DNA of 42,877 nucleotides from the IMG/VR virus record IMGVR_UViG_2671181012_000022. The stretch is one strand, 5' to 3'. Positions 39,001 through 42,877 of this stretch are shown one piece after another. Each line of letters begins with the position of its first letter. The first letter of the stretch is position 1. The position numbers were made by a program. The stretch is from a virus (Duplodnaviria; Heunggongvirae; Uroviricota; Caudoviricetes).

Positions 39001-42000
39001 GACCGGTAACGGCTTTATGATAAACCATCTGACATCGGTGAAAACTGTAACGGAAGAGCTTGCTCAGGCAACAGAGCAGTTTGCTGTTGAGCAGTCCCGT
39101 CTGGCACAGATGCAGGAAAAAGCGCAGTCCATTCAGGATGTGCTTGCCGGACTGGAAGAGCGCCGTGTTGTGTTAATTCGTCAGCAGGCAGCAGAGCAGA
39201 ATAAAGCGTATCAGTCACTGCTGGTCATGAACGGTCAGCATACGGAATTCAACCGCCTGCTGGGGCTGGGTAATGAACTGCTGCAACAGCGTCAGGGACT
39301 GGCGAGTGTACCGCTGCGACTGCCACAGGCCACTCTGGATGATAAACAGCAGGGCGCCCTGAATAACACAGAGCGTCAACTTGCCCTGTCCCGGCTGAAA
39401 GGGGAAGAAAAAGAGCGTGCCCGGCTGGGGTATGCGGCGGATGACCTTGGTCTGGTGGGGGATACGTATCAGGAGGCGAGGCAGCGTTACATCCGTAATT
39501 CGATGGAAGCCTGGCGCAACAATGAGGCGAATAAACCCAAATCCCGGGGCGGAAAATCTGAGACGGAAAAAGCGGAAGACAGTTTTTCCCGTCTGCTGAA
39601 GCAGCAGAAGGAACAACTGGCACTGGCAGGGAAGAATACAGAACTGGCGAAGCTGAAGTACCAGACCTCGCAGGGAGAGCTGAAAACCCTGACGGAGATA
39701 CAGAAGCAGGAGCTGCTGCGCAATGCTGCCCTGATTGACCAGAAGAAAATCCGGGTGCTGTTACGGGCCCGGGAGGAGACCCTGAAAAATGATAATGCAG
39801 ACGCAAGGGCATCAAATGACGCTGAGCTGCTGGGGTACGGGCAGGGTGAGCGGGTCCGTGAACGGATGCGGGAGCTGCAGCAGATTCGTGACGGCTACCG
39901 CCAGAAGGATGCGAACCTGCAGTCCCAGTATCAGACAGGGGATATCAGTGAGGATTTTTACAGACAGGCGCTGGCGCAGAATGCGCAGTATCTGAGTGAA
40001 CGCCTTAAAGACCAGGAGGCTTTTTATGCCGAATCGGATGCGCAGCGTGCTGACTGGCAGAAAGGGCTGCAGGAAGGGCTAAGTAACTGGGTGGACAGCG
40101 CATCAGATTACGCTTCACAGGCAGCACAGCTTGCGACAGACGGTATCTCAGGGATGGTGAATAACATCACGGAGATGCTGAACGGAAATAAAGTGGAATG
40201 GCGCAGCTGGGCTGCATCAATCCTGCAGGAAATATCAAAAGTTCTTATGAATGTGGCCATTGTCAACGGCATTAAGATGGCCGCAAACAGTATGTCCGGT
40301 GCAGGAGGATTTTTCGGCAGTATAGGCAACTGGCTGGGTGGCGCGGTGGCAAATGCAAAAGGCGGCGTTTATACCTCGGCAAACCTGAGTGCATACAGTA
40401 ACAGTATTGTGGACACGCCCACGTACTTTGCCTTTGCAAAAGGGGCAGGGCTGATGGGGGAAGCCGGACCTGAAGCCATCATGCCCCTGACCCGGGCAGC
40501 GGATGGTTCACTCGGCGTGCGTGCGGTGGGCAGTATGAACGGCAGTGCGGGTCTGGTGTATTCCCCGGTGTACCACATTGCCATTCAGAATGACGGCGCT
40601 AACGGGCAGATAGGGCCGGAAGCGGTGGGCACCCTTGTGCAACTGATTGACCAGCGGGTACAGGCGGTGATGTTATCCATGCGTCGTGACGGAGGAATGC
40701 TGAGTGGATGAGATTAAGACCCTTCACTGGTGTCCCCGGGAAGGGATGCAGGTGACGGAGAAACCGTCGGTGGTGACGGTGAAGTTTGGCGACGGTTATC
40801 AGCAACGTCGTCCGGCAGGACTGAATGCGCAACTGAAGACCTTTCAGGTGGTTTTTCGGGTGACAACGGATGCTGAGCGGGAGGCACTGTCCGCGTTTCT
40901 GTCATGGCATGGTGGTTACCGGGCTTTTTTGTGGAAGCCCCCGAAACATAACCGGACGGTCAGGGTGGTGTGCCGGGAGTGGAGTATTACGGATAACGCC
41001 CGGTACAGTGATTTCAGTTGCACGATAGAGCAGGTAGTCAGATGAGAATTATCCTATAAATCACTCTTTATTGTTTAGTTGTTAATTATTTTTAATCTGT
41101 CTTGTCAGAAAGTGCGAAATCGATCTTGTATTTACATTTTGTTACATAATATAAATTGAACTAAGAATTTGTATTAAAATATTTTAATTTTTGTTCATGA
41201 CATCTGAATGCATGAATAGTTCAGTTTAAATAAGGATTAAATCATGAAAAAAACGACAGTGGCACTTTCTGCTGTAGCAGTGGCAGTGATGTTTGCTGCG
41301 GGGGCGCAGGCAGCAGAAGTTTATAATAAAGATGGTAATAAACTGGATCTTTACGGGCGTGTAACCGCTCTGCATTACTTCTCGGATGATAAAGGTAATG
41401 ACGGAGACCAGACTTATGCTCGTCTCGGCTTTAAAGGCGAAACGCAGATTAATGATCAACTGACCGGATTTGGTCAGTGGGAATACCAGTTCTCTGGTAA
41501 CAAAACGGAATCTGAAGGTTCCGCGGGAAATAAAACCCGTCTGGCATTTGCAGGTCTGAGATTTGCAGATGTTGGTACCATTGATTACGGACGTAACTAT
41601 GGTATTGCTTATGATGTCGGATCATATACTGACGTACTGCCTGAGTTTGGTGGTGATGGCTGGACGCAGACCGATAACTTTATGACGGCCCGAACTTCCG
41701 GTGTCCTGACTTACCGTAATACAGACTTCTTCGGGCTGGTTGATGGTCTGAATTTTGCGGCGCAGTATCAGGGCAAAAATGAGCGTGATGACCTTCAGAA
41801 GGCTAATGGCGACGGGTATGGTTTCTCGGCCAGCTATGAGTTTGATGGTTTTGGTTTTGTCGCTGCGTATACCAAGTCAGATCGTACCGATAAGCAGGTT
41901 CAGGGGTTGAATGGTACTGCAGATGTTCTTGATCCTGAATCAGGTAAAAAGGTTGGAGAAAAAACAGTTGACTCAGGTAGTGTGGCAAAAGGTAAACATG

Positions 42001-42877
42001 CTGAATTCTGGGGAACTGGTCTTAAATATGATGCCAATAACCTGTATCTGGCAGCAGTGTATTCTGAAACCCAGAATATGACGACCTTTGGTGATCAAGG
42101 TGTTGCGGATAAAGCTCAGAATATCGAAGCCGTTGTTCAGTATCAGTTTGATTTTGGTCTGCGCCCGTCCCTTGCCTACCTTCAGTCCCGCGGACAGGAT
42201 GTTATGGTTGGTGGTGTGAACCATGGCGATCAGGATCTGGTTAAATATATTGATGTCGGTGCGACTTATTACTTTAACAAGAATATGTCCACCTATGTTG
42301 ATTATAAAATTAACCTGATTGATGAAAGTGAATTTACCCGGAAAGCCGGTGTTGCGACAGATAATATCGTTGCTGTGGGTATGACTTATCAGTTCTGATT
42401 ATTGCTGATAAGTTAATAAATACGGGCCGTCTGCCCTTACAGGCGGCCTGTATCAATGAAAACACAGTTTTCATTGGTCACTGCGATCAGCAATTGCCAT
42501 CTGGCATGTGCTGATTTAACTTTCTGTTATTACCTTTATTGGTTTTATTTTAAATTGGACTTTTATTGTTCGGGGCGCGTCTGCGCCCCTTTTTTATGGG
42601 CGGATATATGCAGGATATTCACGAAGAAAGCCTGAACGAGTCGGTTAAGTCAGAGCAGTCACCGCGGGTGGTGCTCTGGGAAATCGACCTGACGGTGCAG
42701 GGCGGTGAGCGGTATTTTTTCTGCAATGAGCTGAATGAAAAAGGGGAGCCGGTGACCTGGCAGGGGCGTGAATATCAGGCGTACCCGATTGAGGGCAGCG
42801 GCTTTGAGATGAACGGAAAGGGCAGCAGTGCCCGCCCGTCGCTGACGGTGTCCAATCTTTTCGGGCTGGTCACCGGG

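Follow-up and report, generated by a model that had tools for sequence, protein, structure and literature searches.

The concept of the moron goes back to the work of Juhala, Hendrix et al. in 2000, and examples are gene 15 of HK97, which lies within the tail genes, and the lom and bor genes of lambda. The concept of a phage porin is also old. The described systems closest to the locus reported here are lc-ipeX of phage PA-2 and nmpC-ipeX of the cryptic prophage DLP12, in which a lambdoid prophage porin gene is followed by the ipeX element, a 3′UTR RNA by which OmpC and OmpF are lowered. Castillo-Keller et al. are said to have found in 2006 that the PA-2 lc transcript with the ipeX sequence lowers OmpC. 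In a lysogen of strain LF82, a prophage nmpC gene is expressed 10-fold above background (PMC9928086). The stretch of DNA analyzed here, referred to as the window in its full length of 42,877 nucleotides, is the IMG/VR virus record IMGVR_UViG_2671181012_000022 (Caudoviricetes). It is a lambdoid prophage that runs from int to tail gene L and is 99.9 to 100% identical to the ompW-integrated prophage of Escherichia coli FHI_NMBU_11. Between its genes for the minor tail proteins gpM and gpL lies an insert with a porin gene, which an earlier reading of the sequence (the original prediction) had described as a porin moron comparable to Lc and NmpC. The site of insertion, the base composition, the terminator, and the kinship to Lc and NmpC all agree with that description. 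We propose, with a probability of roughly 60%, that the insert represents a porin-replacement moron, self-contained and of the Lc/NmpC-ipeX kind, which was moved to the M/L junction within the tail operon of an ompW-integrated lambdoid prophage.

Comparison of the junctions with those of relatives places the insert at positions 41046 to 42607 (1,562 bp), seven bases beyond the right end of 42600 that had been predicted. The cassette comprises a regulatory region, the porin gene, a structured 3′ untranslated region (3′UTR), and a terminator, and it lies on the + strand, as do both flanking genes. On its left is the gene for a gpM-type minor tail protein of 113 amino acids (aa) (40704 to 41045; Pfam PF05939, Phage_min_tail, E = 3.2e−33), and on its right the gpL minor tail protein gene (42608 to 42877; Pfam PF05100, Phage_tail_L, and TIGR01600), which is cut by the end of the window. 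The claim that M and L are neighbors in relatives was borne out. In prophage L003, whose flanks are 98% identical, the site is empty and the M stop overlaps the L start (TGATG), and the two genes are adjacent in all 151 phage records that match the flanks (151/151), with the insert absent from every one. The GC content of the insert is 41.9%, compared with 56 to 58% for H, M, and L, and it falls to 22.7% in the 5′ 198 bp (41046 to 41243), where an AT-rich upstream region of its own had indeed been expected. Because the cassette lies between genes that are adjacent in relatives, differs in base composition, and has its own terminator, it is a moron in the anatomical sense. The junction comparison also shows that gpL next to a cassette has its own ribosome-binding site, GGGCGGA, which replaces the translational coupling to M. 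An in-frame ATG is found four codons 5′ of the annotated L start (ATGGGCGGATATATG, window positions 42596 to 42610), and the start of L may be ambiguous after the insertion.

The porin gene (41244 to 42398, + strand) is complete, as had been claimed: it is an intact open reading frame (ORF) of 384 aa that Pfam Porin_1 (PF00267) matches end to end (E = 2.4e−144, aa 29 to 384, profile positions 1 to 337 of 337). The protein aligns with solved OmpC structures from A24, directly after the residues AQA, to its C-terminal F, and therefore has a 23-aa signal peptide (aa 1 to 23) and a mature part beginning at A24; the constriction-loop motif PEFGGD is found at aa 133, and the last residues are TYQF, with YQF as the C-terminal motif. 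The RefSeq/PGAP label of the gene is “porin OmpC,” and the NCBIfam “porin OmpC” subfamily model (NF007841) is exceeded with 510 bits against a cut-off of 484, while the equivalog models for PhoE and OmpF are not reached. Over aligned columns, the identity of the cassette porin is 72% with Lc (PA-2), 65% with OmpC (K-12), 62% with OmpF, and 55% with the YedS-type porin of strain 042. Among named proteins, it is most closely related to the prophage Lc/NmpC porins and the chromosomal OmpD group (66 to 70%), and its best matches among phage records are lc/nmpC-type porins (tblastn, 67 to 69%). The porin is closer to Lc than to K-12 OmpC and has M and L, two tail genes, for neighbors; it is therefore no ortholog of OmpC, and the database label names a subfamily.

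The porin ORF is intact in all 32 related loci, as well as in the Citrobacter farmeri and lambda-type loci described below. Twelve distinct alleles, 84 to 100% identical to one another, have pairwise dN/dS values between 0.06 and 0.16 at dS values of up to 1.0 to 1.4, which indicates that strong purifying selection has acted on the porin sequence over a long history. One stretch, aa 218 to 251 (41895 to 41996), is hypervariable, being replaced, shortened, or deleted in other alleles of the 12-allele alignment. When aligned with the OmpC structures, this stretch coincides with a gap or insertion, and it is therefore probably a surface loop under diversifying pressure.

The region 3′ of the porin gene had been treated as a terminator only and proved instead to be a conserved, structured RNA related to ipeX. 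This 3′UTR (42399 to 42607, 209 nucleotides [nt]) contains hairpin 1 (42420 to 42453), hairpin 2 (42454 to 42476), hairpin 3 (42485 to 42516), a single-stranded, U-rich segment of ~55 nt, and the terminator. Its minimum free energy is −79.6 kcal/mol (z = −7.9), and none of 200 shuffled sequences was as stable. In an alignment of 10 distinct sequences, the 38 pairs of the four helices are formed in 99.1% of the cells, and 8 of these pairs are changed on both sides, while in a slid control, in which the partners were moved by 1 to 3 columns, only 36 to 47% of the cells pair. The intrinsic terminator (42572 to 42595, + strand; GGGGCGC-GTCT-GCGCCCC followed by T6) ends 12 nt before the L start, and its 7-bp, all-GC stem, invariant in all alleles, justifies the earlier description of it as strong. 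A 59-aa ORF at 42456 to 42635 was considered as a coding sequence and rejected, given that other alleles have a 13-nt deletion there and the hairpins are preserved.

The ipeX region of PA-2 is organized in the same way (z = −9.3), with three hairpins followed by a single-stranded segment and then by a terminator with the stem GGGGCG..CGCCCC, the stem that also ends the cassette. Because a sequence profile search (nhmmer) detects the terminator only, we relied on a covariance model, R1, built solely from M/L-type sequences, for the kinship to ipeX. The model matches the ipeX region 3′ of every lc or nmpC gene searched at full length (36 to 41 bits, with roughly calibrated E-values of ~1e−7 to 1e−6) and finds nothing significant beside chromosomal genes of the ompC, ompF, and ompD types. 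No Rfam family matches the 3′UTR above noise, and ipeX itself is absent from Rfam. The comparison with the PA-2 lc and DLP12 nmpC loci that the original prediction had suggested thus identifies Lc and NmpC as the closest relatives of the porin and extends the relationship to the RNA. The support for homology is good, but not conclusive, and we regard the 3′UTR as an ipeX-type element and a structural relative of ipeX.

The best-conserved unpaired segment of the 3′UTR is the single-stranded core UAACUUUCUGUUAUUACCUUUAUUG (42517 to 42541, + strand), which is common to ipeX (AACCUUCUGUUAU...AUUACCCUUUAUU) and is antisense to positions −31 to −5 of the ompC mRNA, with the Shine-Dalgarno sequence included. 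Between the core in the window and this region of K-12 ompC, RNAduplex forms helices of 14 and 8 bp (22 pairs, 2 of them G-U) at −24.0 kcal/mol. The controls were 173 translation-initiation regions of E. coli (mean, −10.1 kcal/mol; standard deviation, 3.0; minimum, −19.1) and 439 initiation regions from other enterobacterial chromosomes (mean, −9.5 kcal/mol; minimum, −20.3), and not one of these 612 sites pairs with the core as well as ompC does. Similarly, none of 500 shuffles of the full single-stranded segment reaches the observed ompC pairing. Pairing with ompF is predicted at −15.4 kcal/mol, a value that 12 of the 173 E. coli controls equal or surpass, and pairing with the initiation region of the cassette's own porin at only −6.2 kcal/mol (161 of 173 controls as good). 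In other enterobacteria, about one-third of the porin initiation regions also lie beyond the background minimum. Of 5,426 E. coli genomes, 5,359 carry the target region of ompC with an identity of 99% or more. A second class of alleles (L024/L028 type, UAAUUUUCAUUUUAUUACCUUCAU) pairs in a different register, with ompC −14 to +10 and ompF −20 to +9, at about −19.7 kcal/mol. The ipeX core itself (PA-2, L007:2689-2726; DLP12, L006) forms 15 + 9 bp with K-12 ompC positions −32 to −6 (L005) with 1 G-U pair, and its energy of −26.1 kcal/mol is better than that of every control. That the core pairs with the ribosome-binding region of ompC is therefore predicted from duplex energies, and we consider this pairing a strong hypothesis.

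The AT-rich 5′ region (41046 to 41243, + strand) contains blocks that are conserved in an alignment of 31 M-porin-L loci and the window (15 distinct variants): TTTACATTTTG..AC, ATTGAA, AAATATTTT, GTTCATGACA, CATGAATAGTTCA, and the Shine-Dalgarno sequence TAAGGA. Several of these blocks are also visible upstream of lc and nmpC, at a statistically weak level (z = 1.5). One 20-mer, TTTACATTTTGTTACATAAT (41131 to 41150, + strand), resembles an OmpR box: the stretch that contains it matches CTTGCATTTACATTTTG, upstream of ompC in K-12, at 16 of 17 bases (blastn), and it also resembles TTTACTTTTGGTTACATATT, upstream of ompF. We take these two K-12 sequences to be the OmpR sites C1 and F1, respectively. 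A degenerate 16-mer pattern of the OmpR type has one exact occurrence in the window, against 0.17 expected at two or fewer mismatches. A weak candidate promoter on the + strand (41191 to 41219) may consist of the −35 element TTGTTC (41191 to 41196), a 17-nt spacer, and the −10 element GAATAG (41214 to 41219); an alternative candidate on the same strand combines TTGAAC (41156 to 41161) with TATTTT (41180 to 41185) across 18 nt. The TTGTTC element begins 60 bp, or three 20-bp units, downstream of where the OmpR-like box begins, which corresponds to the C1-C2-C3/−35/−10 layout of ompC. Because a C1-type box of ompC lies three helical units upstream of a weak −35 element, we propose that transcription of the cassette may depend on OmpR, a proposal of moderate strength in which the binding of OmpR is predicted.

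The M-porin-L arrangement is recurrent and old, and not unique to the window. The insert is present with at least 80% coverage in 109 of 5,426 complete E. coli genomes, or in 92 (~2%) when the flanks are part of the query, and three E. coli genomes carry it at 100% identity. The carriers among the best matches listed are largely Shiga-toxin-producing isolates, and some genomes have two copies. The porin-bearing form is a small minority of the 6,418 M/L junctions in 1,905 genomes, and is not the common form in this phage lineage, a possibility that the original prediction had raised against itself. The placement, which had been called notable, is thus no one-off event. The M-porin-L order is common to all 30 IMG/VR loci that encode a porin of at least 84% identity, and it also occurs in one Citrobacter farmeri assembly and in lambda-type tail modules that have a different tape-measure protein and an M protein of only 47% identity. 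In IMG genome 643348545, three separate prophages (L031, L035, and L036) each carry a cassette of the 84%-identity allele class. A motif scan of IMG/VR for the RNA core recovered the same M-porin-L contigs and, in addition, a contig with the porin 3′ end, the 3′UTR, and L (L175). One further match to the core motif, in an unrelated phage (L181), was rejected as a chance match, since it lies inside a coding region and scores 12.6 bits with R1.

One of the lambda-type loci preserves traces of how the cassette may have arrived. Its left junction (L174:4662-4800) consists of its own M, a degenerate fragment from the 5′ end of L, the terminal ~45 bp of an M of the other (Sp/HK97) type, and the cassette. 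Because this junction retains remnants of both L and the other-type M, it points to a transfer of the cassette by recombination, out of a tail module of the other type and into this one. Beyond these loci, a porin of the M/L-cassette family is absent from 50,697 phage records, where the best match is 69% identical, and among 185,579 species-representative genomes there is no chromosomal gene more than 68% identical to the cassette porin.

Phage porins also occur elsewhere. P1/P7-like phage records of 89 to 102 kb (P7, AF503408.1; phi456; JL22) carry an nmpC-type porin, 67 to 68% identical, in a third genomic context, and some E. coli plasmids have weak matches to the insert. The genome paper of enteroaggregative E. 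coli 042 names a “phylogenetically distinct porin,” Ec042-2121 (PMC2808357). We rejected it as an instance of the same arrangement, given that strain 042 encodes the porin at this position in its chromosome, between drpB and hchA, and that the protein has an identity of only 55%; in the prophage that neighbors it, M and L are adjacent. The literature searched contains no description of a porin between tail genes. While the sequences themselves are already public, the placement, the breadth of the family, the ipeX-type RNA, and an explicit antisense model appear to be undescribed in that literature.

Taken as a porin-replacement moron, the cassette would work as follows. In the lysogen, transcription would start at a promoter within the AT-rich region of the cassette itself, probably under the control of EnvZ/OmpR, and would end at the terminator (42595), so that the tail genes would stay silent. 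The 3′UTR, either within the mRNA or after processing, would pair with the mRNA of ompC (and of ompF) and block its translation, and the phage porin allele would thereby replace the major porins of the host. Such a replacement would alter the docking of phages, colicins, and antibodies, as well as the surface antigenicity and permeability of the cell. In the lytic cycle, late transcription antiterminated by Q would continue past the terminator into L and would also yield cassette RNA. The earlier idea of altered receptor availability thus becomes a specific, predicted mechanism of porin replacement. A further conjecture, which we hold tentatively and at slightly less than even odds, is that the cassette constitutes a mobile “porin exchange” unit of two parts, in which a porin is fused to an RNA that shuts off ompC and ompF, the alleles have been retargeted within the initiation region (−31 to −5 versus −14 to +10), and ipeX is likewise a direct ompC antisense RNA acting through its 15 + 9 bp.

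Several observations weigh against the porin-replacement reading. A consensus promoter scan found no + strand promoter at threshold, and outside the OmpR-like box the 5′ region has weak similarity to the regions upstream of lc (z = 1.5) and ompC (z = 2.7); an nhmmer search with the 5′ profile against all loci compared gave no match. The E-values of model R1 come from a shortened, rough calibration. The corresponding 3′ profile matched only the terminator among these loci (E ~0.3), so that homology to ipeX is not established by sequence comparison, and the Smith-Waterman score between the 3′UTR and ipeX (z = 5.4) comes mostly from the terminator. The duplex energies contain no terms for the accessibility of the target or of the small RNA (sRNA), and the sequences are A/U-rich. 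The paper that originally described ipeX reportedly found no complementarity, and even in the case of ipeX a model based on pairing may be incorrect or incomplete. The receptor-binding domain of J, which lies outside the window and was taken from the near-identical genome, is 86% identical to that of J of long-tailed Stx phages and phage 2G7b, and this comparison assigns no receptor to the phage, leaving a PA-2-style rationale of self-exclusion unproven. Finally, according to a published review, ipeX action does not rest on complementarity alone.

One alternative is that the cassette is a plain porin moron. It would then supply an extra porin only, with a 3′UTR that merely stabilizes and terminates the mRNA and a complementarity to ompC and ompF that is incidental or an ancestral relic. 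Porin genes have similar AT-rich leader and Shine-Dalgarno regions, and antisense-like matches could stem from an old inverted duplication; the weak sequence-only homology to ipeX, and a literature on ipeX that does not endorse simple base pairing, would also fit. Against this, the core is the most conserved unpaired part of the 3′UTR although the coding regions are near synonymous saturation, it is the part held in common with ipeX, and its pairing with ompC surpasses that with each of the 612 control sites. Strong pairing is not predicted for the mRNA of the cassette itself, and the second allele class retains strong pairing in a shifted register. We therefore regard an extra porin with an inert 3′UTR as unlikely, while giving it more weight than the other alternatives.

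The cassette could also serve mainly the lytic cycle, with late expression serving to remodel the dying cell's envelope, for instance to strip the receptor from debris and vesicles and so spare the progeny. Its orientation suits such a role, as it is co-oriented with the tail genes, unlike nmpC of DLP12, which is antisense to the late genes, and the ribosome-binding site of L would maintain downstream expression. In lambda, Q-antiterminated late transcripts read through terminators, and the terminator at 42572 to 42595 should be no exception. A conserved upstream control region with an OmpR-type box and a strong terminator would, however, be needless for expression from the late operon, the assembly of porins and the turnover of existing OmpC are slow compared with the lytic cycle, and nmpC-type morons are expressed in lysogens. 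We find it improbable that lytic growth is where the cassette mainly acts, and functions in the lysogen and in the lytic cycle are not mutually exclusive. That the insert is silent or decaying cargo, i.e., hitchhiking bacterial DNA that is unexpressed (for instance, silenced by H-NS, for which a very AT-rich upstream region is a typical target) and functionless in a prophage some of whose genes are annotated as frameshifted in the matching genome, is very improbable and is contradicted by the data on selection and covariation: the ORF is intact in every locus examined, dN/dS stays low over a long divergence, compensatory changes preserve the RNA helices, and there is no chromosomal donor above 68% identity.

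If the porin-replacement reading is correct, the cassette, whose listed carriers are mostly Shiga-toxin-producing E. coli, is a compact device of lysogenic conversion, with consequences for the susceptibility of the cell to phages, for its permeability to antibiotics, and for its recognition by the immune system. Small antibiotics enter the cell mainly through OmpC and OmpF, which also serve as receptors for many phages and colicins and are dominant surface antigens. The cassette also marks the lc/nmpC-ipeX module as a mobile unit that is able to settle at different sites in lambdoid genomes. The pairing proposed here also provides a concrete model for RNAs of the ipeX type, whose mechanism has been open since 2006, and, if confirmed, would clarify how ipeX acts. 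Routine annotation presents the gene simply as “porin OmpC” and leaves the RNA unannotated.

Several other features of the same prophage were noted. Beyond the right end of the window (L001:31109-37276), the tail-fiber genes are followed by a gene for an adhesin with a YadA C-terminal domain, by a 1,330-aa autotransporter peptidase of the S6 family (SPATE type), and then, at the attachment site, by a duplicated ompW fragment. The STnc100 sRNA family of Rfam is represented by two tandem copies (window positions 18048 to 18254 and 18534 to 18744; 135 and 168 bits) that lie 3′ of the Q antiterminator gene and directly 5′ of a SASA-family esterase gene; this sRNA family presumably includes prophage anti-sRNAs of enterohemorrhagic E. 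coli (EHEC). In the early region, a sok antitoxin RNA (Rfam, 110 bits; 12145 to 12320) adjoins a hokD-type toxin gene. Three prophage tRNA genes (16677 to 16923), annotated as Ile, Arg, and Arg in the matching genome, are flanked by two DNA methyltransferase genes. A tandem repeat with units of 162 bp (and 126 bp) at 33456 to 33914 lies within an ORF at 33291 to 34478, and the window and the otherwise near-identical FHI_NMBU_11 prophage have different numbers of copies; in the latter, the annotation assigns this region to a frameshifted portal gene.

Among described systems, the cassette is most similar to lc-ipeX of PA-2 and nmpC-ipeX of DLP12. In all three cases, a prophage-borne general porin of the same branch is followed by a long 3′UTR that extends from the stop codon to an intrinsic terminator and contains three hairpins and a U-rich single strand. 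The core motifs CUUUCUGUUAU / CCUUCUGUUAU and ACCUUUAUU / CCCUUUAUU are common to the cassette and ipeX, and the same ompC site would be paired. The differences are in location, as lc and nmpC lie between Q and the lysis genes (with nmpC of DLP12 in antisense orientation) and the cassette lies between M and L and is co-oriented; in the porin, which differs by ~30% from Lc and NmpC and has the long hypervariable insertion at aa 218 to 251; and in the hairpins, whose sequences are unrelated between the cassette and ipeX. Additionally, the PA-2 record annotates CRP sites upstream of lc, whereas the cassette has a box of the OmpR C1 type.

A second parallel is the chromosomal ompC-micF locus, where the gene of an OmpR-activated porin is also linked to an antisense RNA that pairs with the Shine-Dalgarno and start region of a competing porin and thereby represses its translation, as is predicted for the cassette. 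The core sequence UUAUUACC of the cassette also occurs in MicF, and the upstream box equals the sequence upstream of ompC at 16 of 17 bases. The RNA of the cassette, however, is the 3′UTR of the porin mRNA itself and not a divergent gene, and its predicted main target is ompC, not ompF. The cassette porin, for its part, is 65% identical to OmpC, lacks the large insertion of OmpC (the GFTSGVTNNGRDAL region), and has neither micF nor rcsD as a neighbor. With the lambdoid morons, finally, the cassette shares its insertion between normally adjacent genes, its deviant composition, its own terminator and presumed promoter, and an envelope protein that is likely of benefit to the lysogen. It differs from other morons in its cargo, a full 16-strand general porin with a predicted regulatory RNA, and in its slot, the M/L junction, where the translational coupling between M and L is broken.

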